Source: Gammaproteobacteria bacterium (GTDB taxonomy: Bacteria > Pseudomonadota > Gammaproteobacteria > Tethybacterales > G965206325). Taken from it: DNA of 64,000 nt. The translations under genes and the position numbers were made by a program. The notes beneath the pieces were generated by a model, which was not told the DNA's origin, did no database searches, and saw only the letters and a program-made list of their open reading frames with translations. Location of the stretch: contig OZ242208.1 in the NCBI GenBank assembly GCA_965206325.1, forward strand, positions 1,721,557 through 1,785,556, in the 5' to 3' direction. Shown here piece after piece: positions 7,366 to 64,000 of this stretch. Position 1 is the first letter of the stretch. Every line of letters begins with the position of its first letter.

Positions 7366-7634
7366 TGCGATTCCTTCGCCGCAAAAATTAGCGTGCCGTC
7401 GGCAAGCGTCGGATGGCGCATTCCGATGGATTCGCCGAATTCGCGGACATCGTCCAAATCGCTGAAAGCCGCCCGTTCAATTTGCAGTTGCCGCCGCCGC
7501 AGATTTAATTCGGCGGATTCGGATTCCAATCGCGCTAATTCCGCCCGCAATTCGCGCGCATCGTAGCGCACTTTAACAAGATAAACCGCACTCGCCATCA
7601 CGGACAAAATTAATAAGCAGATGAATCGGCTCAT
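7362..7634 (-). CDS. ftsL: cell division protein FtsL
   Basis: 90 aa with single N-terminal TM and coiled-coil, lying between rsmH and ftsI. Confidence 0.7.
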   Translation of the reverse strand: MSRFICLLILSVMASAVYLVKVRYDARELRAELARLESESAELNLRRRQLQIERAAFSDLDDVREFGESIGMRHPTLADGTLIFAAKESQ

Positions 7635-8617
7635 TCGCCCTCTCCGATTTTTTCGGCGACGCGCATTTTTGCGCTGCGGACTCGCGGATTCGCCGATGCC
7701 TCTTCCGCCGTCGGACGAATAATTTTTCCGACGGGGCGCAAAGACGAAAACGACGGCAATCGCCCAATTCCCGGCAAGGCGACGGATTCGCCGCGAATGA
7801 AATTTTTAACGATGCGGTCTTCCAAAGAATGAAAACTAATCACGACCAGCCGTCCGCCCCGAACGAGCAGATTCCTCGCCTGTGCAAGCCCGGCGGCGAG
7901 CGATTCCAATTCGGAATTGACGCGCATGCGAATCGCTTGAAAACTGCGGGTCGCCGGATGAATTCCCGCGCGCCGCGCGCCGCCCCGGCGGAGGAGACCG
8001 AGGCGGCGCGCATTAATTCCATCGCAAATAATTTCCGCCAAACCGACAGCGGAATGCAGACGCTTATCGCCGCTTTCGCGGGCGAAAACGACAGCGCGGG
8101 CGATTCGCCGAGCGGCGGGCTCTTCGCCCAATTCGCGCAGGACTTGGGCGATTTCGGATTCATCCGCTCTGGCGAGCCACGCCGACGCCGATTCGCCCTC
8201 GGTGGAATTCATCCGCATATCCGGCGGTCCATCGGCGCGAAACGAAAAGCCGCGCAAGGGGTTTTCCAATTGCATTGCGGAGGCGCCCAAGTCCATCAAA
8301 ATTCCGTCGGCGCGAATGTCGTCGCCGAAAAAATCGGCGGCGGCGTCGGCCATATCGGCGAAATTGCGATGCGCGAAATGCAGGCGCGAATCGCCGATTC
8401 CATCCGCAAATTTTTTCGCCGTAGAATCGCGGTCAAGGGCGAGAAGCCGTCCGCCGTCGCCGAGCCGCTGCAGAATCGCGCGGCTGTGACCGCCGCCGCC
8501 AAAGGTGGCGTCCGCATAAAATCCGCCCTGCCGAATCGCCAGTGCATCAATCGCTTCGGCGAGCAAAACCGGACGATGGGGGGATTTTTCATGAGATGAC
8601 AATGTCGTCCCAACCAT
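7631..8617 (-). CDS. rsmH: 16S rRNA (cytosine1402-N4)-methyltransferase RsmH/MraW
   Basis: 328 aa with SAM-MTase motifs (DATFGGGGHS, LDRD) and dcw position. Confidence 0.9.
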   Translation of the reverse strand: MVGTTLSSHEKSPHRPVLLAEAIDALAIRQGGFYADATFGGGGHSRAILQRLGDGGRLLALDRDSTAKKFADGIGDSRLHFAHRNFADMADAAADFFGDDIRADGILMDLGASAMQLENPLRGFSFRADGPPDMRMNSTEGESASAWLARADESEIAQVLRELGEEPAARRIARAVVFARESGDKRLHSAVGLAEIICDGINARRLGLLRRGGARRAGIHPATRSFQAIRMRVNSELESLAAGLAQARNLLVRGGRLVVISFHSLEDRIVKNFIRGESVALPGIGRLPSFSSLRPVGKIIRPTAEEASANPRVRSAKMRVAEKIGEGE

Positions 8618-9041
8618 CGGGCAGAGCGATTCCGCCGTCGGCGTCGCTTTTGGCTTGGCGCTTTTGATTCCATTTTTCCTCGTCCCAAATTCGGAAATGC
8701 CTGCCGACGCCGAGCAGCAGGGCGTTTCGGCGGAGGTTGGCGTATTCGCGCTGCGGCTTGGTGAGGGCGACCCGGCCGGCGGAATCCATCTGCAGATATT
8801 CGGCGTGGCCGACCAGAATTTCCTGCCACATACTGCCTTCGGGATGCAGGGCGGATTTTCCCAGCGAGTCCCTTTCCAGCGTTTCGTAAACTTCGCGCCC
8901 GCACAGAATCAGGCAGCCGAGCGGAAACGCCGTCACCACCAAATCGCCGCCGGATTCCGCCGCCAGCGAATCGCGATGACGCGTCGGCACGGTAAGCCGA
9001 CCCTTTCCGTCCAGCCGAATTGTGGATGATCCGCGAAACAT
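8589..9041 (-). CDS. mraZ: transcriptional regulator MraZ
   Basis: ORF trimmed to internal ATG giving MFRGSSTIRLDGKGRLTVPTRHRD, the canonical MraZ N-terminus; ~150 aa. Confidence 0.85.
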   Translation of the reverse strand: MFRGSSTIRLDGKGRLTVPTRHRDSLAAESGGDLVVTAFPLGCLILCGREVYETLERDSLGKSALHPEGSMWQEILVGHAEYLQMDSAGRVALTKPQREYANLRRNALLLGVGRHFRIWDEEKWNQKRQAKSDADGGIALPDGWDDIVIS

Positions 9042-9110
9042 TATTTGCTGTCCTTTTTCCGATATTACCACAAAATTTCCCGATTTTCCATAATTTTCCA
9101 ATTTTTTTTC
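9042..9110 (-). promoter_or_regulatory. AT-rich Pmra-type promoter region upstream of mraZ
   Basis: Minus-strand sequence contains TTTTGTGGTAATATC (extended -10 like) then AAGGACAG RBS 8 nt before the mraZ ATG. Confidence 0.3.
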
Positions 9111-9219
9111 TAAAAATAACAACAGGCGAATTTGCATCAAATTGCTAATCAGCGGCGAATTCGGCGGCGAATGGGGGTATAATTCCCCCATGGAACGCGA
9201 GGGCAACCGGAGACGAAAA

Positions 9220-9876
9220 ATGAAAACACGCACAATTTTGCTGATATCCGCCGCATTGACGGCGATGGGATTCGCGCAGGCGTCGGATTATGTTGACCGC
9301 GCGCGAGTGATTTCCGCCGACCCGATTGTGGAAACCGTCTACGAGCGGGTGGAAGAATGCCGCTACGAAACCCGCCAATCGCGGCGGGCGAATAGCGGAC
9401 TCACCGGCGAGCGGCTGCTCGGCGGAATTATCGGCGGCGTCGCCGGGGCGCAAGTCGGCAAGGGAAGCGGACGCGATGCCGCCGCCGGAGTCGGCGCACT
9501 CATCGGCAGCGAAGTTACCGACGGGGACAACCGCCTCACCGAAGGCGAATTAATCGGCGGCATTGCCGGAGGAATTATCGGCAATCAAGTCGGCAAGGGC
9601 AGCGGCAAAACAGCGGCGACGGCGGCGGGCGTGCTCGCCGGGGCGATTATCGGCGACAATCTGCAAAACGCCAACAAGCCGCAAAAATCCTCCAAAGTCC
9701 GCGTGTGCGATACCTCCGAGCGGCCGAAAAAAATCATTACCGGCTACCAAGTCACCTACGAATACGAAGGACGCACAGGCGTTGGCGTTCTGCCCTACAA
9801 CCCGGGCAAAACTGTGCCGGTGAATGTCGGGGTGGATTTAATTGAAGATCGCACCTACTCTTCCGTCGCCGATTAG
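9220..9876 (+). CDS. glycine-zipper (Gly-zipper_2TM / 17 kDa-antigen / SlyB-like) outer-membrane lipoprotein
   Basis: Signal peptide MKTRTILLISAALTAMGFAQA, then repeated GGIIGGVAGAQVGKGSG glycine-zipper segments. TATAAT at 9177-9182 and RBS GGAG upstream of the ATG at 9220. Confidence 0.7.
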   Translation: MKTRTILLISAALTAMGFAQASDYVDRARVISADPIVETVYERVEECRYETRQSRRANSGLTGERLLGGIIGGVAGAQVGKGSGRDAAAGVGALIGSEVTDGDNRLTEGELIGGIAGGIIGNQVGKGSGKTAATAAGVLAGAIIGDNLQNANKPQKSSKVRVCDTSERPKKIITGYQVTYEYEGRTGVGVLPYNPGKTVPVNVGVDLIEDRTYSSVAD

Positions 9877-9879
9877 CGA

Positions 9880-10827
9880 ATGAAATTCGCCTTTGTTCTG
9901 GATCCGCTGGAATCGCTCAAAGCGCGCAAGGATTCTTCCATTCTGCTGATGCGCGCCGCCGCCAAGGCGGGCGATTCGGTTTTCGCCGTCCCGCACGATT
10001 CGCCGGCGATTGAAAACAGCGCGTCGACATTCTCCGCCATCCATTTGGAATTGCGCGACGACGATTCCAATTGGTTTTCCGTCCTTGAACAAAAACGCCG
10101 CCGCGCGGATTTCTTTGACGCGATTTTTATGCGCAAAGATCCGCCGGTAGACGCCGAATTCATCGCCGCCCTTCACATTCTGCAATTGGCCGAGCAAAGC
10201 GGCGTTCCGGTTTTTAATGCGCCCCGCGCGCTTTTGGAATTGAATGAAAAGATTTCGGCTTTTCGCTTTCCGGATTTAATTCCGCCGTCGCTTGTTTCGC
10301 GCGACAAGGAATCGCTCCTTGCCTTTCATCAAAAAATGGAGGGGGCGGTTTTCAAGCCGCTGGACGGACGCGGCGGACAAGGCATCTTTGTGTCGCCGAA
10401 GGGCGATAAAAATTGCAATGCAATTATAGAAACGCTTTCGCAAAACGGACGGCGAATGATTATCGCTCAGCAGTATTTGCCCGCCATCGCCGACGAAGGC
10501 GACCGACGCGTATTAATAATTGACGGCGAACCCGCCCCTTTTATGCTCGCCCGAATTCCCCGCGACGACGACCATCGCGCAAACTTGGACGCTGGCGGCG
10601 AAGGTCGCGCAATGCCGCTTGGAAATGCCGAGCGCAAAATCGCAGAGAAAGTCGCGCCTTTCCTTGCCGATGCCGGAGTCATTCTGGCGGGCTTGGATGT
10701 TATCGGCGGAAAGTTAACGGAAATAAACATTACAAGCCCCACCTGCCTGCGCGAAATTTTAGATCAAACCAATTACAACGCCGCCGATTTAGTCATCGCC
10801 GCCGCCCGCCGCCAATGCAAAAAATAG
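9880..10827 (+). CDS. gshB: glutathione synthetase (ATP-grasp)
   Basis: 315 aa; N-terminus MKFAFVLDPLESLKARKDSS and ATP-grasp C-terminal half match prokaryotic GshB. Confidence 0.85.
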   Translation: MKFAFVLDPLESLKARKDSSILLMRAAAKAGDSVFAVPHDSPAIENSASTFSAIHLELRDDDSNWFSVLEQKRRRADFFDAIFMRKDPPVDAEFIAALHILQLAEQSGVPVFNAPRALLELNEKISAFRFPDLIPPSLVSRDKESLLAFHQKMEGAVFKPLDGRGGQGIFVSPKGDKNCNAIIETLSQNGRRMIIAQQYLPAIADEGDRRVLIIDGEPAPFMLARIPRDDDHRANLDAGGEGRAMPLGNAERKIAEKVAPFLADAGVILAGLDVIGGKLTEINITSPTCLREILDQTNYNAADLVIAAARRQCKK

Positions 10828-10832
10828 AATCC

Positions 10833-30796: not shown

Positions 30797-31606
30797 TTAT
30801 TGTCCGCGCTGCGATTGGATGGCGCGATTAATAATTTTTCCGGCAAGGCGTGGAAATGCAAAATATAAAAACAACAGTCCGCGCAACTTAAAAGGAATAA
30901 TTAATTCGCGGTCGCGCCGCCGAATTGCGCGCAGAATTGCCTCGGCGCAAAGCGTTAAATCCACCGATTCGCGGCTATGCCGGCGGGCGCTTTCGCCAAG
31001 CATTTCGCCCTTTGCATCAAGGGCATTCTCTCTGAGCATTGTCCCGCGAATCCAATGCGGCAGGACTGTTAAAACGCCGACTCCGTCCGCCGACACTTCT
31101 TCCCGCAAAGACGCGCAAAATCCCTCCACTGCATGCTTGGATGCCGCATATCCCGTATGCAAAGGCACGCCGATGCGTCCTTGTATGGATGAAATTGCCG
31201 CCAGCATTCCGCGCCTTTCCTTCAAATACGGCAGCGCCGCCAGCGCGCAATTGCATAAGCCGAAAAAATTAACATCCATCAAGCGGCGAAAAACATCGGA
31301 CGATTCTATTTGGTCAAAGCGCGCCCACATGCTGATTCCGGCGGCGACGACGACGCAATCAATTCCGCCGAAGTGCGCCGCCGCAGATTTCATTAAGCGG
31401 CGGCAGTCGTCTTCTTTGCCAACATCGCCGACGACGACCAGCGGCTCGCCTTTGCATTTGGATGCGGCAATGCGCAATCGCGATTCGTTGCGCGCGAATA
31501 AAATGACCCCCCCCCCCTGTTCGGAAAAAGCGCGCGCCAATTCCGCGCCGAGTCCGGAAGACGCGCCGGCAACAACAATTGCTTTGCCGTCAAATGCTTT
31601 TTTCAT
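30797..31606 (-). CDS. SDR family oxidoreductase
   Basis: Track ORF trimmed to ATG at 31604-31606 (MKKAFDGKAIVVAGASSGLG). Upstream part is antisense to the oxidase gene. Confidence 0.8.
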   Translation of the reverse strand: MKKAFDGKAIVVAGASSGLGAELARAFSEQGGGVILFARNESRLRIAASKCKGEPLVVVGDVGKEDDCRRLMKSAAAHFGGIDCVVVAAGISMWARFDQIESSDVFRRLMDVNFFGLCNCALAALPYLKERRGMLAAISSIQGRIGVPLHTGYAASKHAVEGFCASLREEVSADGVGVLTVLPHWIRGTMLRENALDAKGEMLGESARRHSRESVDLTLCAEAILRAIRRRDRELIIPFKLRGLLFLYFAFPRLAGKIINRAIQSQRGQ

Positions 31607-33375
31607 CGCGGCCGAAGACGCCGTTAGATGCGGCAAAAATATCGCGCGGATCCAGCGATTTTTTCGCTTCGCGCAATGCCGCCGCCGCCGCCGGAGAATG
31701 CGCCCGCAAAATGAATTCGCGCCGCACCTTGCCAATGCCATGATGATGCGACAAGGATCCTCCTTTGGATAAAATAACTTCGCGCAATTTTCGTTCAATG
31801 GCGCCGTAAGTTTCTTCGGGATGCGCCAGTCCGCGCGCGCAGAATCCCATTGTAAAATAAATGCATGCCCCCCCATGATAAGTTTGGGTAACACGGTGGG
31901 AAAGATAAGGACGGCCGGCCACTCCGCGCTTGGCGCATTCTTCGGCGAGCGCATCCGCAACGCCTTCGCAAATGCCCATAATGCAGGTCCACGGCGCGGA
32001 AGTTTCAAAGGTTTCGCCGATGATGTTCAAGCGGCTGAAAAAATCGCGAATGTAGGCAATGGCGAAAGTGAGCATATAGCCCCGTCGGCCATTGGCTTCG
32101 CCGCCGCTTACGCCGCCGCAGCGGCGGGCGATTTTCAGCGCCGTCCGGCGGCGGCGAGCCGCCTCCCCCCCCCCCCCCCTCCGTCACCAAAGTGCATGCG
32201 ACCATTTGCGACGGATTAAATTTCATCACGCGCAAAAGAAAAAATTTCTGCATCGCGGATATAATTCCGCCCCCCCCCCCCCTCTTCGGCTTTAATGCCT
32301 GACCAAAGCGAAATTCGCGGTTATCAACAAGGCGAATGCTTTCCGGCAAGGCATCGGCCTTTCTAAGTTCGCGCAGAAAATTGATGCCGTCGGCGAATGT
32401 CGGAAAAACCGCCGATCCGTATTTTCGCTCGCGCGGCAGCGGATGAATTTTAATGACCGCCTTAGTGACGACTCCCAAGCATCCTTCGCTGCCAAACAAT
32501 AAAGCGCGCGGCTGCACGCCGGCGGAAGTGCGGGGCGAATCCGGCGGCGATGATTCCACCGCGCCTTTGGGGGTGATTAATGTCGCCGACAAAACGATAT
32601 CTTCTATGTTGCCGTAGCGGTTTTTTTTCATGCCGCTGGCGTTTGTTGCAATCCAACCTCCTAATGATGAGAATTCAACGCTGTCGGGTTCGTGTCCGCA
32701 GATAAATCCGCGGGCGGAAAGTTCGCGCTCTAAGTCTTTGCCGCGAATGCCGGCTTCGGCGCAGGCGAGCATATTGTCTTCGTCCACCCACAGCAGGCGA
32801 TTCATTTCGCGCAGGTCCAAAGAAACAATCATTCGCTTTTCATTTTTCGGACACAGCAGCGCACCGCTTACATTAGTGCCGCCGCCGAAGGGAATCAAGC
32901 AGACATTTTCGGCGTCGGCAAGGGCGACAATCGCTTCTGCATCGTCTTCGCCGCGCGGAAAAAAAATCATATCGGGAATTCGCGGCGGAATTTTTCCGCG
33001 CGACAAGCGGTAAATTTCGCCGACGCTTAATTGTCCGTGACTGCGAATGAGCCGCTCGCCATCGTCAAAGGAAATTTGCCCGGGACGAAAGCGCGATTGA
33101 ATTTCGCGGACGAAATTATCATTGAGAATCGGCGGCGGCGGAGTCGGCAGGGGGGATTCTTCCTCCAATTCTTTCGGAGTGACGGCAACGCCGAGCATTT
33201 CCTCCACAAACGGAATAAAGCCCGGCAGATTTTTTCCGGCGAGGGCGTATCGCCCTCCCCGCATAATGACGGCGCGGCCTTCAAATTCAAAGCCGGTGTC
33301 GGCGTATCCCCATTTGTGCGGATGCCGCGGACCGTCGGAATCGTCGTAGCAGGAATCAAGCGGCGGATTCGGCAT
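31590..33375 (-). pseudogene. FAD-linked oxidase (alkyldihydroxyacetonephosphate synthase / GlcD-like) split by a frameshift at a C16 tract
   Basis: N-terminal part (32005-33375: HKWGYADTGFEF..., FAD-binding PCMH domain) and C-terminal part (31590-32075: ...SLSHHHGIGKVRREF) lie in different frames. The junction is at homopolymer 32165-32180. A second tract (32270-32282) is in-frame (GGGGG). Confidence 0.6.
32165..32180. repeat. C16 homopolymer tract (frame-disrupting)
   Basis: Direct count; oxidase homology switches frame here. Confidence 0.85.
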
Positions 33376-52287: not shown

Positions 52288-54063
52288 TCACCGATACACC
52301 GGCAGCGGCTGAGCCGCAAATCCGCGCGCTTGATACAATCGCTCCGACAACTCCACCCGAGTCATCCATATTACTAAATCATCATAGATGCCTTGGCTTT
52401 TGAATCCATCGCCGGGATCAATCGCTTCCGAACCCGTCGGCAGCGGCAAATAGCCAATGCGGCCACGCTCCCTCGACGACACCCCACCGGTATCTTGGCG
52501 GTTTCTATTCGCGTCGTCGTTGGCAGCGCCGCCACTAACAGTGTATTCATTCGCCCCGCAGTTGGCTGTGTCAAAGCGAAATGTGTCGGCGACGCGCGCC
52601 GCAATGGCGTTATATCGCTCCAAGCGGCGAAAAGAATCATCCGAGCCCGGATCGGTCGGAGCATTGCATCTCGGCTCGCCCGCCGCTATGGACGATATAT
52701 GATTAATCGCCCCGAATCCATTTTGACCATGCGAAATTACCGCAAAGGGAATTCCATCCGTAACATCGCCTTCCACATTCACTTTCGGCGGCGGCAGCAC
52801 AATGGCGCAGGGACCGCGCGGACTACCGCCGCCCCGCCTTCCGCCGCAGATGTTATTAATAACCGAACCCGCCGCAATTGCTCGCGGGCCGGTATCCAGA
52901 TTAATTCGTCCGCAATCCTGATGGCAAATAATCGGCGGTTCAATTAAATCACCGACAGCGCGAAAGTCCGGAGTGGCCGGCTGCCTGTAAAAAATAACGA
53001 AAAGAGGCGGCGGCGTTATGCCGATGAGTTGCAATTCTCCGTAATCGTTCGACGCAAGGCCAATGTCAATCCTTCGGCCAAAGTCAACAGGGGTGGGGAG
53101 GCCAAATCCATTGCACCGACCAATGCCTCCGCCTCTGCGGCATAACAGAACCTCACTGACATTGAAAGGATTAATAAGGGCTCGGATTTGCACCTGACCC
53201 GGACCATTCGGACAAGTATAAGTAACTGGCGAACTATCAAGGGGATTGAAAGGGCTCCCCTCTCGCCGCCAGCTAATGACGCCCGGATTGCTGGACCGTA
53301 TTTGAATTGTTCCCGATCCGCAATTTGGGTCAACATTAGCAGCGGGGACATCTTGGAAAGGAGCCGGCGTTGGCGGAAAATCCATTGTAAGGCGCGTCGC
53401 CCGGGCTTGATACATTTCGGCGGTGCTTGTTCCGCCGGTGCTGCATCGAGGCACCGCCGCTATCAAACTTGCATCATCCGCCGGGCAAAGCGGCACGCGA
53501 GTTTCAAATTCGTCGGCGCGCGTTTCCGGGCCGAATCCAAGAATGGAATTCGCAAACGCCAAATCCACCCGATAAGTGTAGCGATTGCCCCATTGGTCGG
53601 AGGGCGGCACGCCGAGTGTCGCCCACGGCAAAACGCCGCCGTATTCCATACAGCCGCCCTGTTGAATGAGTTCGAGGGAAGTAAGCGGCCGACTGGGGTC
53701 AGTAGCCGAAGTCGAAATGGGGCTGGTGCCGCGCAAAATATCCACCGGCAGGCGATCTTCCAGACCGTCGCCGTCAATATCCGGACATGGCAGATAAGGG
53801 CGGCCCGCCGGAATTTCGTAGTTAAGTAGGGGGGATGCCACGCTTTGCAGATAGCGGAATTCGGTATTGTGCCGCAGGGCGTAGGCGAAGACGGCTTCGC
53901 GGATTCGCTCTAATTGATTTTGTTCGTCCAGCCGTCCGCCGTCGCGAATTTGAATGCCGAGAGTAAGCAGCGAGCCGCCCAGAATCAAGCCGATGACCGC
54001 CAGCACAATCATCAATTCCACCAGCGTAAATCCCCGCTGTTTTTTCGCCGGCACTGCTGTCAT
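52288..54063 (-). CDS. large type IV pilin-like protein, paralog 1 (591 aa)
   Basis: Prepilin leader and class III signal MTAVPAKKQRG|FTLVELMIVLAVIG. Shares the GRPYLPCPDIDGDGLEDR, WGNRYTYRVD, GFGPETRADEF, VISHGQNG and YDDLVIWM motifs with paralogs 2 and 3. Confidence 0.75.
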   Translation of the reverse strand: MTAVPAKKQRGFTLVELMIVLAVIGLILGGSLLTLGIQIRDGGRLDEQNQLERIREAVFAYALRHNTEFRYLQSVASPLLNYEIPAGRPYLPCPDIDGDGLEDRLPVDILRGTSPISTSATDPSRPLTSLELIQQGGCMEYGGVLPWATLGVPPSDQWGNRYTYRVDLAFANSILGFGPETRADEFETRVPLCPADDASLIAAVPRCSTGGTSTAEMYQARATRLTMDFPPTPAPFQDVPAANVDPNCGSGTIQIRSSNPGVISWRREGSPFNPLDSSPVTYTCPNGPGQVQIRALINPFNVSEVLLCRRGGGIGRCNGFGLPTPVDFGRRIDIGLASNDYGELQLIGITPPPLFVIFYRQPATPDFRAVGDLIEPPIICHQDCGRINLDTGPRAIAAGSVINNICGGRRGGGSPRGPCAIVLPPPKVNVEGDVTDGIPFAVISHGQNGFGAINHISSIAAGEPRCNAPTDPGSDDSFRRLERYNAIAARVADTFRFDTANCGANEYTVSGGAANDDANRNRQDTGGVSSRERGRIGYLPLPTGSEAIDPGDGFKSQGIYDDLVIWMTRVELSERLYQARGFAAQPLPVYR

Positions 54064-54064
54064 T

Positions 54065-55480
54065 TCAGCAATCCACAAAGTTGACCGGCACTTCCACCGC
54101 GTGGACGGCGAGTCCGCCGCGCGATGTTTCCTTGTATTTAATTTTCATATCCTGTCCGGTTTCCCACATGGTTTTAATTACGCGGTCCAGCGAAACGAAA
54201 TGCCCGCCGTCGCCGGCCAAGGCCATTCTGGCGGCGGTAATGGCTTTTGCCGCTCCCATTGCATTCCGCTCAATGCATGGAATTTGGACGAGTCCGGCGA
54301 TGGGATCGCAGGTGAGTCCGAGATGATGCTCCATTGCAATTTCGGCGGCGTTTTCCGCCTGATGCGGCGTGCCGCCCATGGCTTCCGTCAATGCCGCCGC
54401 CGCCATTGAACACGCCGACCCGACTTCGCCCTGACAGCCCACTTCCGCCCCCGAAATGGATGCGTTTTGCTTGCACAGCATTCCAACCGCCGACGACGCC
54501 AGCAGAAAATTCGCGGCGGCGGATTCAGCGTCTTCGCCTTTTTGCGCACGAAAATTCACATAATAATGCAAAACCGCCGGAACGATTCCCGCCGCTCCGT
54601 TGGTCGGTGCAGTGACGACTCGTCCGCCCGCCGCATTTTCTTCATTAACGGCGATGGCGTAAAGCCCCGCCCAATCCATTTCGACGAGCGGGTCGCCCGC
54701 TTTTTGCCGCGCCGTTAATTTTTCATAAAGTCCGCGCGCGCGTCTTTTTACTTTGAGGATGCCCGGCAGAAATTCGTCGTCGCTTTCGCATCCCCGCTTG
54801 ACGCATTCTTGCATCACCCGCCAAATATCCGAAAGCCGTCGGCGAATTTCGGATTCGCCCAAGCGCGATTTTTCATTCGCCAAGACGATTCCGCTTATCG
54901 GCATTCCTTCGGCATCGCAATGCGAAAGCAATTCAGCGGCGGAAGAAAATGAAAACGGCTCCGCATTTTGGGAGGCGGGCTGCGAATCATTCGCCGCTTC
55001 AAACGCCGCTTCGTCCGATACAAATCCGCCGCCGACCGAATAATAGGCGGCGCGACGCAAAATCGCTCCGTTAGAATCCGACGCCGCAAAAATCATTCCG
55101 TTGGGATGATTCGGCAGGGCTTTGCGGAGCATCAGCAAATCCCGCTTTTCGTCAAAGCCGATGGGTTTTTCACCGAGCAGCATTAGCGATTTTTCCGTCC
55201 GAATTTTTTCCAATCGCATCGGAATGACGGCGGGGTCAATTTGGTCGGGCGATTCGCCTTCCAATCCCATCAGCACGGCTTTGTCGCTGCCGTGGCCTTT
55301 GCCGGTCGCTCCCAGCGAGCCGTATAATTCCGCGCGGACATTGGCGGCGTTTGCGAAGAATCCGCCGTCCTTCAGCGAATGCGCGAACATATTCGCCGCC
55401 CGCATCGGGCCGACAGTGTGCGAACTGGACGGGCCAATTCCCACCTTAAACAATTCAAAAACGCTCAGTGCCGACATCAT
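54065..55480 (-). CDS. sdaA: L-serine dehydratase (Fe-S, single chain)
   Basis: [54 protein letters not shown] align with E. coli SdaA; 471 aa. Confidence 0.9.
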
Positions 55481-55483
55481 TAA

Positions 55484-56686
55484 TTATTCCAAGCCGATTC
55501 GCGGAAAATCCTCCGCCGGAAAAACACCGACCCGACTCATTTCGCCCACTAATTCGTCGGCGGAAATCCAGACGACAATATCGTCAAAAACTAATCCGTC
55601 GTCGTCCGTCCAGCCGGATTCCGAATGCGGTCCGGCGTAGAATGAAGATTCCACCCCGTCGGAACCCAACCCGCTGGAAAGGCGAATTTGCAGGCAATTG
55701 TCGCGGGCATTTTCGCGGAATGCATTCTGCCGCTCGGCGTTAAATTCTCTATCCGCAGTCGTGCCGTCCGGAAACGGCGTGCATTCAACTTGCGAATATG
55801 GAAAGCGCCCACCGCGCCCACCCGAATTTTCGGACGCGCCTTCGCCCAAAACGCCGCCGTGACCATTCGGTCCGTGCGACACAATTACCGCCGGCACGCC
55901 GCTGATAATATCGTCTTCGTCGTAGGGGCGAAACGGACGGGATGCCAAAGTAATATTCGCCGTCGCAAAATCCCCGGCGATGACTAAAACATTCGTCGTC
56001 CCCGGATCGCACGGAAAAGCGACGCGAGTCACCGCCCGATTTGGATTCGCCCCGCAAATTGCGCCGGGCGGCGGCGATTCTTCGTTGCCCGACCGCTCTT
56101 GATATTCGGGGTTTGAGCCGGACATTAGCAATTCCCTCCGCAGGTCATACTTGTCGGCGATGGTGCTTTGATTAAATCCAATTAAAGCGTTGGCATAGGC
56201 GGGATCCACCCGATAAGTATATTCCCGCCCCCACCAGTCGGCGGAATACTGCGGCAGATTAAGCGTCCGCCACGGCACGGTGCCTTTGTAATCTTCGCAG
56301 CCGCCGAGGTTGCGGCTGTACACAGTGCTAAAAGCAATGGGGCTGGTAAGATTGTCAAAGGCGAAATCCGTCCGATCCTCCACGCCGTTGCCGTTGACAT
56401 CCGGACACGGCAAATAAGGGCGACCCGCCGGCAAGCGATAAACCGCCCCGCCATTTCTCACCCAGCGGGCGACCGTCCGCTGGCGGCCGGCGTAATCCAG
56501 CATCGCCAATTTGATTTGACGCATCGCATCCTTCACCGACGCTTGATTCTCCACTTCCAGACGGCTGAAGACCGGCACCAACGCTCCGCCGAAAGCAATG
56601 CCGATGACCACCAGCACAATTGCTATTTCCACCATCGTGTAGCCGCGGCTTGCCGATTTTTTTTCGCGCATTTTCATCATCGTCAT
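55484..56686 (-). CDS. large type IV pilin-like protein, paralog 2 (400 aa)
   Basis: Leader ...SASRG|YTMVEIAIVLVVIG, then GRPYLPCPDVNGNGVEDR, WGREYTYRVD, VIVSHGPNGHGG, FDDIVVWI. Confidence 0.75.
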   Translation of the reverse strand: MTMMKMREKKSASRGYTMVEIAIVLVVIGIAFGGALVPVFSRLEVENQASVKDAMRQIKLAMLDYAGRQRTVARWVRNGGAVYRLPAGRPYLPCPDVNGNGVEDRTDFAFDNLTSPIAFSTVYSRNLGGCEDYKGTVPWRTLNLPQYSADWWGREYTYRVDPAYANALIGFNQSTIADKYDLRRELLMSGSNPEYQERSGNEESPPPGAICGANPNRAVTRVAFPCDPGTTNVLVIAGDFATANITLASRPFRPYDEDDIISGVPAVIVSHGPNGHGGVLGEGASENSGGRGGRFPYSQVECTPFPDGTTADREFNAERQNAFRENARDNCLQIRLSSGLGSDGVESSFYAGPHSESGWTDDDGLVFDDIVVWISADELVGEMSRVGVFPAEDFPRIGLE

Positions 56687-57804
56687 GGCCCAAACTGCGA
56701 CAAATTATCCACCGGCAAAACGCCGCTGCGTCCCATTTCCGCAATCAGCGATTCGCCCGACATCCAGCCCACAATGTCGTCGTAAAACCGTTCGTCTCCT
56801 CCGCTTTCCTCCCCGATTCCGCGCGGCGCATCTACAAAATTAATATAATTGTCGCCCCGCAATGTTGTACCCGGATTTTCGCAGGCGAGAGCGTTTAATT
56901 GCTCCAAGCGGTAAAATTCATTATCCAAACGGCTGCACTCCGGTACCTCCACCGGACTCAAAGTAATATGCAAAGCCCCGAAGCCGGCGCCGTTGGGGCC
57001 GTGCGAAACAATTACAAACGCCAAGCCGTCCAGCGTCTCGCCGGGGGCGTATATTTTTCTGACATCTCCATCCGTGATGGTAACGGCGGTTTCAGCGATA
57101 ATGCCCGACACAATTTCGCCGTCGCCGTCGCAGTCCAAATTTCGGCAGACGACTATCGGCAATTCCTCCGTGCCGTTGGAGCCGCTGCGCCGTCGCTCTT
57201 GCGGGACGGTAATGCCGCTGCTGACCGTTAATCTCAACGCCGGATGAAATTTATCCGCGCGCGTTTCCGGGCCGAACCCTAATAGTCCATGCGAATACGC
57301 AATATCCACCCGATAACTGTAAGGATTTCCCCACAAATCGGCGGCGGGAAGTCCGAGAGTCGCCCACGGCAATGCGCCCCAACTTCTATCGCAAAATGCG
57401 CCGCCATCGCCCGGGTCGCCGAATTCGTCCGCCAAACCGCGGCCCGAAGTGGTAGGGGAAATATCAATGACATAAGGCGGCGGGTCTAAGCCTATCCGAT
57501 TTTCCACGCCGTCGCCATCGGTATCCGGACACGGCAAATAAGGGCGGCCGCCCGGCAATTCTTGAACTCTGACGCCGTCGTTCACGGAATATCCTTCGGC
57601 GGTTTGATGCCGCACGGCGTAGGCGGCGACGGCGTTTATCGCGCGCTGAATCGCCTCTTCCGTTTCCTCTTCCCGCTCGTCCCGCTCGCGGGCGGAAAAA
57701 GGAATCAGCGAGCCGCCCAGCAGCAAGCCCAAAACCGCCAAAGCCAAAGCGATTTCCACCAGCGAATAGCCGCGCGAATTACGATGTCCGCCGATTCTTT
57801 TCAT
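56683..57804 (-). CDS. large type IV pilin-like protein, paralog 3 (373 aa)
   Basis: Leader MKRIGGHRNSRG|YSLVEIALALAVLG, then GRPYLPCPDTDGDGVENR, WGNPYSYRVD, VIVSHGPNGAGFG, YDDIVGWM. ATGA overlap with paralog 2. Confidence 0.75.
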   Translation of the reverse strand: MKRIGGHRNSRGYSLVEIALALAVLGLLLGGSLIPFSARERDEREEETEEAIQRAINAVAAYAVRHQTAEGYSVNDGVRVQELPGGRPYLPCPDTDGDGVENRIGLDPPPYVIDISPTTSGRGLADEFGDPGDGGAFCDRSWGALPWATLGLPAADLWGNPYSYRVDIAYSHGLLGFGPETRADKFHPALRLTVSSGITVPQERRRSGSNGTEELPIVVCRNLDCDGDGEIVSGIIAETAVTITDGDVRKIYAPGETLDGLAFVIVSHGPNGAGFGALHITLSPVEVPECSRLDNEFYRLEQLNALACENPGTTLRGDNYINFVDAPRGIGEESGGDERFYDDIVGWMSGESLIAEMGRSGVLPVDNLSQFGP

Positions 57805-57807
57805 TTT

Positions 57808-60800
57808 TCATTGACGCGGACAGGTGGAATCTTCGGGCGCGGGCAGTCCGGTGTCATGGCACAGACGGAAGCGTCCGCCCAGCAGCCGCGCGCGGTCGTT
57901 GCGCACAACCCGATCTATCAGACTGCCCGCGCCGATTTCTAAATCTTCGGCGAATAATTCAAAGACATGGTCGTTGTCCGTATTTTCCTGCGTATCCAAA
58001 TACGCGCACGGATGCCCTGTCGTTATCGGCTCCTGCGCCCGATGCTCGTTTTCCACGCCCTGCAGCGGACGATTTGGATTAAACGCATCCTCCCGCGTCT
58101 GGCTGATGGTACACGACGAATTGCCCGGATTAATACTGCAGCTGCTGACATTATTAAAGGCGGATTGATCCGTAATCGCGCATTCCGTCCTTTCCAGCGG
58201 AGTCAAACTGAAAAACACCGCCGCCTGAACATTGGTAAATTGCGCGCCGCGCTCGCCGAGGCGAATTTCCGTCCCCTTCGGCAATTGCAAAGCGGGCGGC
58301 GCCAGACGCAATTCGCGCCTTGCCTGCGCCGGTGTTTGCACCGGCACAACCGCACCCGCAAATGACCCGCCGCCAATGGACGACGGATCCAAATAAGTTC
58401 CCATTATTGGATTAATCATTCCGCCCCGCGCAAGTTCAAGACCGTTGCCGGTCGCCGGACGAAAAACCGCCCCCTCGCCCAGCAGACGAATCCATACATT
58501 CTGCCGCACCGTAACGCTGGAAAATAACGGAAATGTCGTCACCGGCAACGACGACTCCACCGGCGTGTATATGTGCGGACGAGTCGTCAGCAAATACGGC
58601 ACCGCCGCTTCCGCCAATCGCCTCAAATCAAAATTACCGTCGCTGTTGGTTGCAATATCCAGCGGAGCGGTAATGTTGGTTGTGGCGCCGCCCGCCAGAT
58701 TGCCCCTCGCCTGCACTAATACAGGCGCATTGGAACTCGCCCCCGGCGGTGCCAAAAATGCCGCCCGCGCCACCGTAATAATTACTTCCGCCGGATAAAC
58801 CGACAGCGTGTATTGCTCATCAGTGCCGTCTATCGTCCGCGTTACCGTCACATTGCGGTCGACCTGCCCCGGCACCGGCACCCGATCGCATAGGGGGTTG
58901 AGGGGATCGGCGACGCCATCAATGCATCTGTCAGTGCCAATGGCATCGTTCAGAATACCGTCGCTCTCTAGCAAATTTAGCGGCGCATGCGGCACCAAAT
59001 TGTTAAACGGAAAACCGGGCGAACCAGTGCTATCCGAATCCGCAGTTCTTACCCAAATGGCTTCCGGGTTAGAAGTGCCAAAGTTTGCGGCGACCGCCGT
59101 CGACAAAAACCCCCGCACCAGCACCACCGACACCAGCTGATTGGGATTGGTGAGGGTGACCATCCCGGCGGTCGCTTGAATCGTCCGCTCCGGAATGGCC
59201 GTTGCCCGCGCATGCACATCGTCGCGCGGATGCGCCATTTGAATAGTGGCTGTCTCCGTACCCGTTGCGGTGTAGATAATCCCGCTGGAAATTACAAACG
59301 GCTCGCTGATAACCTGCCACCGGTCTCTTTGCGTAATGCCGCGCAGATAATATTCGGTGACCGAGCGTCCAGGGGGAAAGATTCCGTTGGGTGGTTCGTT
59401 AAGCTGGGAAACAAACCTGTCTTGTCCGTCAGCACCGGGAGCAAGATTAGTCGCTATCACCGTTGGTCCGTTCAAAACATACCGCGGCAGATTACTCGCA
59501 ACCAATTGCGTTTGCGCGTCAATCGGCAGCGGCAGATTCCGCGCCGGCGGCGGCGTGGGAGTGGCGCCCCGAATGGTAACCGTATGGCCGCCGCTCAGAA
59601 CCATTTGATGAATATAGCGCGCCGACCGCATATTAACCCCCGTCAGCGGATTGTCCGGCACTACTGCATTTGCCGCCCCGATGCCGTCAATCACCCATCC
59701 TTCAAACAGATTTGTATCCCAGCCGACAATGCCGTCCGATTCAATTAGAAGGGTGACTTCCCCCCGCGCTGCAATCGTCGGCGAAATATGGGCGGTCAAT
59801 TGCCCGGGTTCTGAAGCCGTCACCGTTGCATTGGGCATCCGAATCAATTCCGCAAACGACGGAAGGCGGCCGATTGGCACAGTCGGCGCGATTCCGCTCG
59901 GATCATTTCCCTGCGAAAATACAATGTTCGTCTCGCTAAATCCGGCTATCAAATTGACATTGGGGGCGGTCGTCTCAATGGACAGTCGAATCACTCCTCC
60001 CGACGGATGCGGCGGCGTAAATGACGCTATGGTGATCGTTAGGGTGGACGACGGATCAAAGTCCATACTGCTCGGAAAGTCGTCGCAATTTGCCGGCGAT
60101 GCCCTCACTTGGCATGTAATCCTCACCGGAAAAGGATTGGAACTTATGCGGTTCTTGTAAATTTCAATCGGCACCGTCCCCGAATTCTGATAAATCAGAT
60201 AATCCACCTGCAAGAATCCAATTTCCACCGGCGTGTTCAGCACTCGAAATTCCGCCCGCTCATGACCCACCGGAGAACCCGACGGCATAACAAACTCCAA
60301 AGCATTGCTGTCGGCGGGTTCTAAGTCATAAGCGACATCCTGCGTCTCAACATTAAAGGCGACGGCCATTTCCAGCGTTAACGCGCGAGTCCCAACCGTC
60401 AAAGTAACTTCCGGCGGCGTCGGCGGCGTGGGGAAAGTAGCGATGATTCCATTTATCGCCAGCGTCAATCCGGCACCGTGGCGCGCCGTCCCCTCAACAC
60501 GGGCAAGCCTAACGACAACTTCCTGCGTTAATGGCGTATTGAGGGCGTAAATCCGCATTCCCGTGCTGCTGATGGAAATAGTCGTAGCATCGCCGCTGAG
60601 ATAGGGAAACGGAATCGCCTGCGATGCCATCGGCGTTGGATTATTATCAAATTCAATGGTGATGTCCGCCTCGCCGATAATCGCCGTTTCTTCGTTGTTG
60701 CCTAACGGCGGCGGAATCGGATCCGGCGGCAATAATTCCACAGCCAACTCTTCGCCGTCAGTGTCGGCGGCGGCGACAAGAACCCACGACGATTCGCTGG

Positions 60801-63800
60801 CATCTCTTTCAATTAATACCGACAGTGAGGTGGCGGTGCTGTAATCGCCGCCGTCAAAGGGGCTTGTGCCGCTGTAATTGACGGTATTGGCATCGCCTAC
60901 AAAACCCATCGTCACCGTTATTGGCCGGCCGACGATGACCGGACGACCGAAAGAATCCATCGTCCGAATCGCCAGCGATAATTCCTGATCCGTCTCGGAA
61001 AGGACAAAATTATTATTGAGGGGATCCACCCGATAGCCATTAGCAAACCATGCGACTTGGGCGTCCCGCCTCGGCTGAGCTTGCGGCTGTTCGCCGGTAA
61101 TTGCCACATTGATCGTCAGCGGCGACGAAGTCCCCGGTGCCAGAGCAAAGTGAGGGGGTGATGTGACTTCGCTGATTTCAATTTGCACCGTGCCCGATGT
61201 TAAAGAATCCACCGTATTGGGATTCGAAAAGATAATGGTTACATGCGTGTTGCCCGTATCTATGTCGTAATTCGCCGCACCGGAAGTCGCCGCCACTTGG
61301 ACGCCATTAACGCTGGCGATAAAATCCCGATTTATTTGCGGACGATTTAGGTCGGTGTCATTAACCGTGTTGGGGGCGTCGCCCGGCAGCGGGCCGACCC
61401 GAATGTTGCCCAAAGATACAGGCCTATTCGGCAATGTGGTGAATGCCAGCAGAACCGTCGCCGGAAAAGTCCGCCGATTAAGTTGAATCAAATTCGGCTG
61501 AGACGCTAAAACCGCCGCGGCTCCGGTGCCGATTCCCATCGGCGGCGGAAGGGTGGACGCCCCTATATTTACTTGGAAAATTCCGGTGCCTTGAACTTCC
61601 AAAACATTCGGCTGCGGCTGAATGGTGAACATTAAATTCGCCGGCCTCGGCGACACAACGCCAAAATAGACAGTCGCAGAGAACCTTTCAACTGCAAGGC
61701 GGGCGGTATAAATGCATTCTCTGAATTCGTTGGCGGTGGTTTGGAAAGAACCCGCCACGACATCGCCCCCCATAATGGTGGCATCGCACACATTGGCATC
61801 CCTTTCAACCGCCCTTATTGACATTATCGGCGCGGCGAGTGCCCTGCCGCCGACGACGGGAATTACAATTGGCAAATCAACCATCACATTGCCCGCCGTT
61901 AAAGAGACATTGGCCGGCGTCCCGACCGTCACCACCGGCAACTGCGAATTAAATATCACCTGCCGAAACCCCGCCAGACGGTAAGCCGAAGGATTGTCTA
62001 CAAATGTCAACACCGCCAATTGGTCTCCGACTTCAAATCTCGGAGCGAATCGCATCTCTCTCCGACCCCGACCATTCGAAAGCCTAATGTTCGCAATTTC
62101 GCAGGCGGTCATTTGCGCAGCCGTGGCAGTATAAGTAAAGACGGTCACCGGCTGCGGAATTTGAAACGAAGTTGTGTCGGCGACGGCGGCGTAGTAGCCG
62201 CTAATCGGACAAATACCCGCCAGCGGATTCGCCCGCAAGGAAAACACCAAATCCAACTGATTGGACAGCGGCCGCCCGACGAGTACTCCTCCTAGATTCG
62301 GCTGGGGGTTAAATGTGGCGGGAACCGGCAAATCGTTCTCTACCGTCAGAGTCAAACCAACCGTCACCGTAAGTGGGGTGGCGGAAAGCGATACAATCGG
62401 TGCATCCGGCACAACCGCAATTGCCGTTTCGCTTTGAAGCGGATTAACCGTGTATGAGCGATTCGGATTGCCCGTATCGTTTCTCCCCGCAAAAGACAGC
62501 GTGACCGTCGATACGGCATTAACTATCGGCAGCAGCGAAAATTCTTGATCCCGCGCAATGATATTCGCCGGCAAAGCGGCGGACACCGGCACTTCGCAGG
62601 AAGTCCCAACGGTGATAATATTCCCAGCAGTAAATGTGACGGTCTCCCGGACAAACCGGCCGGAATAATAAACCCATCCTTCCAGCGGACAATTGCCGCC
62701 GATGCCGCCGATAAGCGGCGCGCGAATTCCAACCCTAATTGGAATCGGCGTAGGCGGAAACAAAGCATTGGACGGACGAGCATTCAAAGTCGCCACTATC
62801 GGCAAATCCGCATTCCTATTATTCACCGCCACCGTCACCGGCGGCTCGCCCCCGACCACGACAGTCCCGACATTCGCCAATCCCGATAACTCCAAGGGCT
62901 GAACGCCGGTGATATCAATGGAAATATCCACGCCGGAACCCAGAGTCGCCGCAAGAACAAACGGAAAGGTTATGTCCGCCGCCCCTACCGGCCGATTAAT
63001 GCGAAATATCGCCGTGCCGTTGACGGGACTCGTATTCGCCACCGGACGATCAATCCTGAATGTCATCCTAGTATCGCCGGTCATCACGGGAATCAAAACC
63101 TCTTGATTGGCAACCGACACAGCCACCCCTCTGCCGTTAATAGTCAGCTGATACTCACTCGCCGGATTCGGGCCGCTGATATAAACCAGCGTGACAGTAT
63201 TAGAATGACCGGTGACAATGGGGCTGGCGCTGGTTTGATAAGTCCATTCCGCTCGTATCGGTCCAAAAAATGGCAGCGAATTAGTCTCTCCGAGGCCCCG
63301 CACTGGCTCCATGCTAAATCCAGTCGCAATCTCCGGCCGACCCGTCGGCGTGGGCGGCCCATCTCCATAAAAAATTTGCCTTTGATTTAGAGCACTGTCG
63401 TCCGGCAGGGTGTATTGGTTTCCGGGAATGGATTCCAGAACCTCCACCCGAAACTCGCGTCCGCCTAAATCTCCATTAACGCCGGCCACATAAATGCTGG
63501 CTGCCGTCGCTCCGAGATTAATCGGAATGCTGCCGACGGCAAAGCATTCGTTGACGCTGCTGTCTTGAGTCGGTGTGCCGAAAGTCGTCATCGACTGCCC
63601 ATTCACCGGCGGAAAATAAACATCGCCGTCCCAATTGCAGTCATCTACATCAGCCGTCGACGGTATCTCCACAACCCGCAAAGCCAACGACACATTCCCT
63701 TGACTAATCGGCGGCGCAAATGTTCCCACGGTGACATAATTCGTCGCCACCAGCGGCAGATAAATTCCCCTGAAGACCGTATGGAGAATACTGCGGTCTG

Positions 63801-64000
63801 TCGTAAACAGAGGCGCCCCCGGATATCGCTGCTCCAAAATCCGAAATGTCACCGGGGTATTGGTCACGCCGCTCAATTCAACAATAGGATCTCCGGCGGC
63901 GTCATTCGGAATAATTAATTGCACTTCGCCTGTGCCGATTCTTGCCGCCCCCGGATTTAAGCGAATGTCCGATGCTCCCGTCGGAATGACAAGATCCGTC
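57808..64000 (-). CDS. giant repetitive secreted/surface protein (>2,060 aa; N-terminus beyond window)
   Basis: Uninterrupted minus-strand frame from the window edge to the stop at 57808. Thr/Val/Pro/Asn/Gly-rich with many ...TVT.../...PVTV... beta-strand-like repeats. Cys-containing C-terminal ~200 aa. Stop is 3 nt from the pilin-like paralog 3 start. Confidence 0.8.
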   Translation of the reverse strand, partial: TDLVIPTGASDIRLNPGAARIGTGEVQLIIPNDAAGDPIVELSGVTNTPVTFRILEQRYPGAPLFTTDRSILHTVFRGIYLPLVATNYVTVGTFAPPISQGNVSLALRVVEIPSTADVDDCNWDGDVYFPPVNGQSMTTFGTPTQDSSVNECFAVGSIPINLGATAASIYVAGVNGDLGGREFRVEVLESIPGNQYTLPDDSALNQRQIFYGDGPPTPTGRPEIATGFSMEPVRGLGETNSLPFFGPIRAEWTYQTSASPIVTGHSNTVTLVYISGPNPASEYQLTINGRGVAVSVANQEVLIPVMTGDTRMTFRIDRPVANTSPVNGTAIFRINRPVGAADITFPFVLAATLGSGVDISIDITGVQPLELSGLANVGTVVVGGEPPVTVAVNNRNADLPIVATLNARPSNALFPPTPIPIRVGIRAPLIGGIGGNCPLEGWVYYSGRFVRETVTFTAGNIITVGTSCEVPVSAALPANIIARDQEFSLLPIVNAVSTVTLSFAGRNDTGNPNRSYTVNPLQSETAIAVVPDAPIVSLSATPLTVTVGLTLTVENDLPVPATFNPQPNLGGVLVGRPLSNQLDLVFSLRANPLAGICPISGYYAAVADTTSFQIPQPVTVFTYTATAAQMTACEIANIRLSNGRGRREMRFAPRFEVGDQLAVLTFVDNPSAYRLAGFRQVIFNSQLPVVTVGTPANVSLTAGNVMVDLPIVIPVVGGRALAAPIMSIRAVERDANVCDATIMGGDVVAGSFQTTANEFRECIYTARLAVERFSATVYFGVVSPRPANLMFTIQPQPNVLEVQGTGIFQVNIGASTLPPPMGIGTGAAAVLASQPNLIQLNRRTFPATVLLAFTTLPNRPVSLGNIRVGPLPGDAPNTVNDTDLNRPQINRDFIASVNGVQVAATSGAANYDIDTGNTHVTIIFSNPNTVDSLTSGTVQIEISEVTSPPHFALAPGTSSPLTINVAITGEQPQAQPRRDAQVAWFANGYRVDPLNNNFVLSETDQELSLAIRTMDSFGRPVIVGRPITVTMGFVGDANTVNYSGTSPFDGGDYSTATSLSVLIERDASESSWVLVAAADTDGEELAVELLPPDPIPPPLGNNEETAIIGEADITIEFDNNPTPMASQAIPFPYLSGDATTISISSTGMRIYALNTPLTQEVVVRLARVEGTARHGAGLTLAINGIIATFPTPPTPPEVTLTVGTRALTLEMAVAFNVETQDVAYDLEPADSNALEFVMPSGSPVGHERAEFRVLNTPVEIGFLQVDYLIYQNSGTVPIEIYKNRISSNPFPVRITCQVRASPANCDDFPSSMDFDPSSTLTITIASFTPPHPSGGVIRLSIETTAPNVNLIAGFSETNIVFSQGNDPSGIAPTVPIGRLPSFAELIRMPNATVTASEPGQLTAHISPTIAARGEVTLLIESDGIVGWDTNLFEGWVIDGIGAANAVVPDNPLTGVNMRSARYIHQMVLSGGHTVTIRGATPTPPPARNLPLPIDAQTQLVASNLPRYVLNGPTVIATNLAPGADGQDRFVSQLNEPPNGIFPPGRSVTEYYLRGITQRDRWQVISEPFVISSGIIYTATGTETATIQMAHPRDDVHARATAIPERTIQATAGMVTLTNPNQLVSVVLVRGFLSTAVAANFGTSNPEAIWVRTADSDSTGSPGFPFNNLVPHAPLNLLESDGILNDAIGTDRCIDGVADPLNPLCDRVPVPGQVDRNVTVTRTIDGTDEQYTLSVYPAEVIITVARAAFLAPPGASSNAPVLVQARGNLAGGATTNITAPLDIATNSDGNFDLRRLAEAAVPYLLTTRPHIYTPVESSLPVTTFPLFSSVTVRQNVWIRLLGEGAVFRPATGNGLELARGGMINPIMGTYLDPSSIGGGSFAGAVVPVQTPAQARRELRLAPPALQLPKGTEIRLGERGAQFTNVQAAVFFSLTPLERTECAITDQSAFNNVSSCSINPGNSSCTISQTREDAFNPNRPLQGVENEHRAQEPITTGHPCAYLDTQENTDNDHVFELFAEDLEIGAGSLIDRVVRNDRARLLGGRFRLCHDTGLPAPEDSTCPRQ

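Follow-up and report, generated by a model that had tools for sequence, protein, structure and literature searches.

Modular pilins such as PilB and PilC of Streptococcus sanguinis, CofB of enterotoxigenic Escherichia coli and TcpB of Vibrio consist of an N-terminal pilin module and extra C-terminal modules, and they have been shown or predicted to sit at the tip of the filament, where they mediate adhesion (PMC8179133, PMC10191384). The tip complexes of type 4 filaments are capped by a subunit that lacks the glutamate at position 5 of the mature protein (Glu5), and the filaments grow from tip to base (PMC10191384). In this work we analysed a stretch of 64,000 nucleotides (the window) from a genome assigned to the Tethybacterales (contig OZ242208.1, positions 1,721,557 to 1,785,556), which ends in a very long minus-strand open reading frame (ORF). 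With little more than even confidence, we lean towards the view that this ORF covers the last two-fifths of a type IV pilin-like protein that is modular, has about 5,600 amino acids (aa) and would form the cap or tip of a filament. We call this protein the giant, and its gene together with three pilin-like partner genes the cassette.

The giant, its partners and their common N-terminal module

The minus strand carries an uninterrupted frame of 2,063 codons between positions 57808 and 63999, which terminates with a stop codon at 57808-57810 and at its other end continues past the window edge. The other five frames contain 34-104 stops each over the same stretch, against none in the long frame, thus no gene can be accommodated there in another frame or on the other strand. 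The original prediction, made from the sequence alone, had described a giant protein whose minus-strand frame is open to the window end, and had named an antisense or wrong-frame artefact as the finding that would speak against it. The stop counts dispose of such an artefact, and the giant proved to be genuine and cut far more severely than had been assumed: the window contains residues 3576-5636 of a 5,636-aa protein (reference P0114), i.e. the C-terminal 37%. The related loci come from several co-assembled strains of one European Nucleotide Archive metagenome (HiFi metagenome assemblies), and were reached partly through the neighbouring pilin-like gene. The giant is a single uninterrupted product on three related contigs (5,684, 5,696 and 5,586 aa), of which one is a linear 39-kb molecule and the other two are circles of ~1.95-1.96 Mb, and there are two further full-length records of 5,636 aa (P0114) and 5,582 aa (P0119). 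The gene is thus intact in five related strains (5,582-5,696 codons). In contig L001 (13x coverage) it is split at a run of G (9800-10001) into pieces of 2,238 and 3,378 aa, the upstream one ending in an Arg/Trp/Cys-rich, out-of-frame tail. Because the frames of L002 and P0114 cross this junction uninterrupted, the split is either an assembly error in a low-coverage homopolymer or a strain-specific lesion. As regards the upstream frameshift also raised in the original prediction, one is present in this single contig, and the frame is unbroken in five other strains.

The N-terminus of the giant lies beyond the window edge and is known from P0114, L001 and their relatives. It starts with a basic leader, followed by RG↓YVHIIFVLFTILGVALWGV (the arrow marks the putative cleavage site), an amphipathic helix, LLPCPD, a Cys and GRLPWR. 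All 12 giants have the class III signal pattern R/Q-G↓F/Y-[IVF]-H-[IVA] with a subsequent hydrophobic stretch of ~21 residues, which ends in LWG. Mature position +5 is Leu, Met or Ile in each of these 12 proteins, whereas it is Glu in all nine partners examined. When a profile of nine giant N-termini was compared with that of the partner family by hhalign, the two matched with 98% probability (E=1.7e-13, 143 columns), and the aligned region took in cleavage site, helix and the motifs LPCPD, C and LPW. Judged by this profile similarity, the giant is itself pilin-like, with an N-terminal module homologous to the three partners.

The cassette genes are tightly packed. Partner 1 (373 aa, 56683-57804, minus strand; G↓YSLVE with Glu5, LPCPD head) begins 3 nt past the stop of the giant (TGA AAA ATG), which agrees with the coupling to pilin-like genes that had been predicted. 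Partner 2, a 400-aa pilin-like paralogue (55484-56686, minus strand; G↓YTMVE), overlaps partner 1 by 4 nt. Partner 3, a paralogue of ~590 aa with large insertions (52288-54063, minus strand; G↓FTLVE), matches the N_methyl motif with E=3.7e-9; in the ORF list it extends to a TTG at 54078, its orthologues being called from an ATG located 1 nt past the sdaA stop. All three proteins match the prepilin N-terminal methylation motif (PF07963/TIGR02532), and share the motifs GRPYLPCPDxDGDGxE, PWxTLG, DxWG, SHGPNGxG and FDDIVxW. The exact 373-aa sequence of partner 1 was not on record in the protein look-up. The partner profile matched type IV pilins of known structure and GspG through their N-terminal helix, and in NCBIfam the matches to GspG and GspH were only sub-threshold, through the same helix. 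In related strains the gene order is clpB, giant, a 375-aa gene, a 390-aa gene, sdaA, a 587-aa gene and leuA.

The sdaA gene, which encodes L-serine ammonia-lyase (54065-55480, minus strand; TIGR00720, E=1e-200), is inserted between partners 2 and 3 with junctions of 3 nt and 1 nt. It is 99-100% identical between strains, while both of its neighbours are variable. It does not occur in the cassettes of the two distant genomes described below, and is probably a passenger outside the system.

The partner-family profile collected ~65 long members, almost all of them from metagenome contigs, and ~40 short members of 215-260 aa, some of which carry PF08334 (T2SSG). Short members are common in free-living Betaproteobacteria; the matches listed in the contig scan were all short proteins of free-living relatives, and the symbiont lineage was not among them. 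In Duganella sacchari a short member is part of a pilus operon and stands directly behind genes for an MshE-like ATPase with a cyclic di-GMP-binding N-domain and a GspF/PilC-like platform protein.

A giant with three partners was also found in AqS2, the symbiont of Amphimedon queenslandica (L057; 3,301 aa with partners of 454, 451 and 486 aa), and in a circular 1.98-Mb genome (L059; 3,329 aa with 363, 406 and 394 aa). A further eight giants, 2,736-3,393 aa long, share the termini of these proteins. Overall, the cassette recurs in AqS2 and about ten further lineages, all within a small group of bacteria of the sponge-symbiont type. The association with pilin-like genes, which had been noted as an unusual pairing for an adhesin, is therefore real and conserved across distant genomes; the adhesin part of that proposal found no support, and the giant turned out to be pilin-like itself. 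It required an exhaustive HMMER search to reveal the family, word-indexed searches being insufficient: in the word-indexed protein database the window ORF found two homologues, and queries with the whole ORF or its last 364 aa returned only near-identical relatives and one 200-aa fragment. With the last 1,200 residues as query, HMMER yielded 26 matches among 1.84 billion representative proteins. Matches outside the giant's own cluster were restricted to the last ~220 residues and always lay at the extreme C-terminus of the target. All full-length targets have a pilin-like N-terminus, and all but one (P0128) have the PCPD motif at residue ~100-150.

Conserved ends, variable shaft and genomic surroundings

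By sequence comparison, the giant family is defined by two conserved ends and a middle that cannot be aligned. Both termini are recognisable down to 26-35% identity in distant genomes. For the variable shaft no homologue outside its own cluster was found by HMMER among the 1.84 billion representatives. In the window the distal part of the shaft occupies 58534-64000 (minus strand; residues 1-1822 of the window ORF, ~3576-5397 of the 5,636-aa protein) and continues past the edge. The segment 57808-58533 (minus strand) encodes the orphan C-terminal domain of ~220 aa, which is conserved among the giants, and a lineage-specific, Cys-containing tail of 17 aa with the stop codon. The motifs of the domain are NVWIRL, NPIMGTY, (R)PAL.LP.G, NV(K/Q)AA..FSL.PL, SQ.RE, GHPCA.LD..ENTD.D and (S)NDR..LLGG; its invariant positions are a Trp, Asn-Pro, Thr-Tyr, Gln/Glu, Pro-Cys, Glu-Asn-x-Asp-x-Asp and Asn-x-Arg. 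Fourteen sequences of this domain had no Pfam match, and its profile had no PDB match. Kinship of the domain with the pilin family was also considered and rejected, as profile comparison found no relation.

Searches for known domains were negative along the rest of the protein as well. The window ORF had no Pfam or NCBIfam match at E<=1, both halves of it had no match in PDB sequence searches, and neither the N-terminal 2,196 aa of L001 nor the 3,329-aa giant of L059 had a Pfam or NCBIfam match at E<=0.1. Self-BLASTP of the window ORF gave no self-match at E<=10, Tandem Repeats Finder detected no tandem DNA repeats of note, and the best probability in an HHalign profile self-comparison was 52%. 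The short repeats of Ig-like or beta-sandwich adhesin type with which the ORF had been thought to be filled were thus essentially absent from the searches; what could be seen by eye was one degenerate module, C-P-x-x-G followed after 24-39 aa by C, in about six copies around the window edge. It is possible that the shaft has a cryptic beta-sandwich fold.

The composition of the ORF is unusual. Thr, Val, Pro and Asn make up 9.5, 9.3, 9.0 and 6.2% of the residues, whereas the averages for 16 other window genes are 3.6, 6.2, 4.3 and 3.5%, so the protein is indeed Thr/Val/Pro-rich, as had been observed. The same holds for the giant at full length, the ~5,000 residues beyond its pilin head being rich in Thr, Val, Pro and Asn and poor in Lys. 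Lys is represented by two residues (0.1%, as opposed to 5.1% in the other window genes). Lys depletion is common to the whole cassette and to the distant giants (0.1-1.2% in most giants, 0.7-1.8% in partners), and the Arg content of these Lys-poor proteins is normal (window 52288-64000; L057; L059; P0119-P0131). One may speculate that Lys is avoided because of Lys-directed host chemistry, such as cross-linking or ubiquitination, or because of proteases. The earlier impression that Cys is almost missing before the last ~200 residues was mistaken: 12 of the 18 Cys residues lie upstream of that segment, and all 18 form nine close pairs along the full ORF, a pairing that is not random (permutation P=5e-5). 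In the full-length giant 25 close pairs were counted from 52 Cys, against 14.8+-1.8 expected at random. Local pairs all along the chain fit disulfide bonding and thus an extracytoplasmic location, and we consider it very probable that the giant is a genuine, extracytoplasmic protein.

Comparison of the strains revealed a sharp difference between the cassette and its surroundings. The amino acid sequences of the flanking SdaA, LeuA and EamA are 98-100% identical to those in the window, with dN/dS values of 0.06-0.20 for sdaA and leuA (0.08-0.20 for sdaA between strains). The three partners are 79-100% identical (dN/dS 0.5-2.0), and identity of the window part of the giant is only 74-82%. For the giant the unmasked dN/dS was 1.70 and 1.76 over ~2,030 aligned codons, and exceeded 1 in all 150-codon windows but the last. 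After masking, in which six codons on each side of every alignment gap were dropped, it was 2.0-2.6 over ~1,600 codons with four methods (NG86, LWL85, YN00, maximum likelihood), with bootstrap 95% lower bounds of 1.6-1.8. The dS of the giant equals that of the flanking genes (0.03-0.07), and at this equal synonymous divergence the amino acid sequence of the shaft changes ~15-35 times faster than that of the neighbouring genes. Differences at codon positions 1 and 2 occur with the frequency expected under positive selection, and those at position 3 are about half as frequent. Between two complete alleles, identity is 85-93% over the N-terminal half, and variability is highest in the distal part, which the window covers. 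The alleles also differ by gaps of whole codons (1-136 residues), which keep the frame open. The last ~85 codons, which contain 0-4 non-synonymous and 3-4 synonymous differences, are under purifying selection. This pattern rules out a wrong frame or decaying sequence, and indicates that the shaft, exposed and lying between constrained termini, is subject to diversifying selection. Localised hypervariation of the type generated by diversity-generating retroelements does not apply, since the variation runs gene-wide. Positive selection on the scale of a whole gene is rare, and here it is accompanied by strong divergence between strains whose neighbouring genes are 98-100% identical.

The nearest named relative of the cassette is that of AqS2, which lives in a sponge and belongs to the same clade as Ca. 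Beroebacter blanensis from Crambe crambe (PMC12166358), and the window is likely to come from a sponge symbiont. In AqS2 the cassette adjoins the cell-division cluster lpxC-ftsZ-ftsA-ftsQ-ddl-murB-murC (L057 15428-21365); in the window the division and cell wall genes (murD to rsmH, 246-8617) are ~50 kb away from it. A 3.36-Mb metagenomic genome (L058, ERZ25072196) has three partner-type genes followed by a gene for an ankyrin protein, with no adjacent giant (1358-7319, minus strand); before them, on the opposite strand, 12 small genes form an array (8511-15101, plus strand), the products of which are paralogues of 156-181 aa that had no match in Pfam. The window itself encodes a 502-aa protein (19107-20615, plus strand) in which about nine ankyrin repeats are preceded by a signal-like segment at the N-terminus and followed by hydrophobic segments at the C-terminus, a eukaryote-like type common in sponge symbionts. 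It must also be noted that runs of 4-7 Gly are inserted in several housekeeping proteins (MurD, MurF, MurE) in the regions 246-5714 and 30797-33375. The FAD-linked oxidase-like ORF 32005-33375, which abuts ORF 30797-32008, has an Arg-rich, nonsense-looking tail immediately behind a GGGGGGG run, as might result from a frameshift at a poly-G/C tract or from a pseudogene there.

Possible route of export and alternative readings

If the giant is the tip subunit of a filament, its export can be pictured as follows. The N-terminal helix would insert in the inner membrane, and prepilin peptidase would cleave after the conserved Gly. The giant is placed as the first, capping subunit because it has no Glu5, and the three Glu5-bearing partners would dock beneath it, as in the GspH-I-J-K and PilH-I-J-K tip complexes. 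Lack of Glu5 does not disqualify the giant, as it is a known property of the cap subunit (PMC10191384). The complex would then prime a type IV filament or a short pseudopilus, the machinery of which would be encoded elsewhere, and the filament would carry the disulfide-stabilised giant out of the cell and hold it at the tip, in line with the tip exposure predicted for modular pilins (PMC8179133). The C-terminal domain, being furthest from the cell, would be the functional end, serving in ligand binding or assembly. Shaft and C-terminal domain displayed in this way could bind host matrix or cells, and the sponge host or phages could impose diversifying selection on the exposed shaft.

Several observations weigh against this picture. 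Genes for a prepilin peptidase, ATPase, platform protein, secretin or major pilin were not found in the window or in the fetched flanks; the machinery is supported solely by the type IVa pilus clusters reported in a metagenome-assembled genome of the AqS2/Tethybacterales group (PMC12625764). The giant N-terminus does not match the N-terminal methylation motif (PF07963/TIGR02532) at E<=0.1, and the called leaders of the giants (18-77 aa) are long for type IVa prepilins. The analogy to the tip complex rests on gene number and Glu5 status only, as all four proteins belong to a single GspG-like family, in which they are paralogues, and are not orthologous to GspH, GspI, GspJ and GspK. The AlphaFold model of the last 1,000 aa, made with a 5-sequence alignment, had a pLDDT of 27.7 and was discarded. 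To our knowledge, there is no precedent for passage of a ~600-kDa subunit through a secretin.

A more far-reaching version of the tip reading can be formulated. In this version the set of one giant and three pilins would be a self-contained and so far unrecognised type 4 filament accessory, specific to sponge-symbiont lineages, which both exports and anchors an orphan fibre of ~600 kDa that is free of lysine. An arms race with phages or host recognition would drive the shaft (omega ~2 over >1,600 codons), the conserved C-terminal domain would represent a novel module for binding to the host, and the system as a whole would be the main strain-specific determinant of the interaction between symbiont and sponge. 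Taken with all its parts, we regard this version as unlikely.

The alternative that survives best is an envelope or surface fibre anchored by pilin-like modules, without a true pilus. The four proteins could form a dedicated stub, or the giant could be kept in the inner membrane by its N-terminal helix, with a shaft that extends across the periplasm or gets to the surface in some other way and acts as a spacer, a coat or a matrix-binding fibre. Such an arrangement would account for the absence of major pilin and machinery genes beside the cassette in all five contexts, for the long leaders and for a cleavage site that pilin HMMs do not recognise. It would also be easier to reconcile with a size far above that of known pilus-displayed proteins (the largest modular pilin surveyed has 860 aa, PMC8179133). 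A plain membrane anchor would not, however, predict the Gly-Phe/Tyr site, the strict split in Glu5 and the fixed one-plus-three set, which fit a tip complex, and the strong diversifying selection speaks for exposure outside the cell. We hold this alternative to be rather doubtful, yet it is one to be taken seriously.

Very improbable, and contradicted by the results, is the reading as an ordinary giant adhesin that leaves the cell through a type I or type V secretion system (similar to RTX proteins, LapA and SiiE, or to autotransporters), with pilin-like neighbours that are there by coincidence. The giant size and the acidic, Thr/Val/Pro-rich composition would suit such an adhesin, as would the conserved C-terminal domain, the Asp-rich ENTDGD motif of which is a potential Ca2+ binder. 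However, the 5,600 aa matched no Pfam or NCBIfam domain of any kind, be it RTX, BIg, cadherin, DUF11 or autotransporter, and the genes nearby are clpB, the pilin-like genes, sdaA and leuA, with none for an ABC transporter, membrane fusion protein, TolC or an outer-membrane barrel. Moreover, all full-length members have the N-terminal pilin module, and the one-plus-three cassette is kept across distant genomes. A PilY1 homologue was rejected as well, as neither the giant nor the 14 C-terminal domains had a Pfam match and there is no PilY1 beta-propeller.

Decaying or unconstrained sequence, with a high dN/dS due to relaxed selection or a wrong reading frame, would explain values of 1 or above, differences at codon positions 1 and 2 that match the expectation without constraint, and the frameshift in one related contig, but it is hardly credible when 5,582-5,696 codons are open in five strains and no other frame is open, the gaps are whole-codon, omega is significantly above 1 (bootstrap lower bounds 1.6-1.8) instead of merely near it, and both termini are under purifying selection.

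Comparison with described systems

If the giant is a modular pilin at a filament tip, this would stretch a concept built on proteins of a few hundred residues to a size of 2,700-5,700 residues, and would raise the mechanical question of how the filament machine and the secretin handle a tip subunit of ~600 kDa. It would also provide sponge-symbiosis research with a specific candidate for interaction with the host or with phages. The cassette takes up ~1% of a ~2-Mb genome, and the near-absence of Lys from the whole of it is a further oddity that can be tested. Neither the Tethybacterales comparative paper nor the 2026 AqS2 hologenome preprint mentions pili or the cassette.

It is instructive to compare the giant with the systems that it resembles. 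With giant adhesins of type I secretion systems (SiiE, LapA, MpIBP) and with the hypervariable giant surface proteins of marine bacteria it has in common the megadalton-class size, a probable surface location and variability at the strain level. It differs from them in having no RTX or BIg repeats, no type I secretion genes and no repeats at the sequence level, and in its pilin-like anchoring module. PilY1/PilC of type IVa pili is, similarly to the giant, a large protein whose gene neighbours those of minor pilins and which is believed to be exposed on the tip complex. Unlike the giant, which carries a pilin module, PilY1 is not a pilin; it has ~1,000-1,200 aa and a C-terminal beta-propeller (PMC8179133). 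GspK and PilK(PilX) offer a parallel in gene content, one pilin-like protein without Glu5 being encoded with three that have it, and the giant is not orthologous to them.

The short LPCPD pilins of MSHA-like operons in Duganella, Massilia, Azospira and Polaromonas belong to the same family as the partners, with the motifs GRPYLPCPDxDGDGxE, PWxTLG, SHGxNGxG and FDDIVxW, and represent the ancestral context of the family beside an MshE-like ATPase and a GspF-like platform protein. In contrast to the cassette, they are single-copy proteins of 215-260 aa with Glu5 and no giant neighbour. The modular pilins share with the giants the basic plan of a pilin module with C-terminal additions. The giants (2,736-5,696 aa) are, however, 3-6.5 times larger than the largest modular pilin (860 aa) in an InterPro survey (PMC8179133), their grafted part contains no recognisable domain, and they lack Glu5. 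Because their N-terminus does not have the IPR012902/PF07963 signature, they would escape surveys of modular pilins. Thus the concept of the modular pilin is known, and what this locus would add to it is a giant, orphan modular pilin without Glu5, which has a partner trio of its own.

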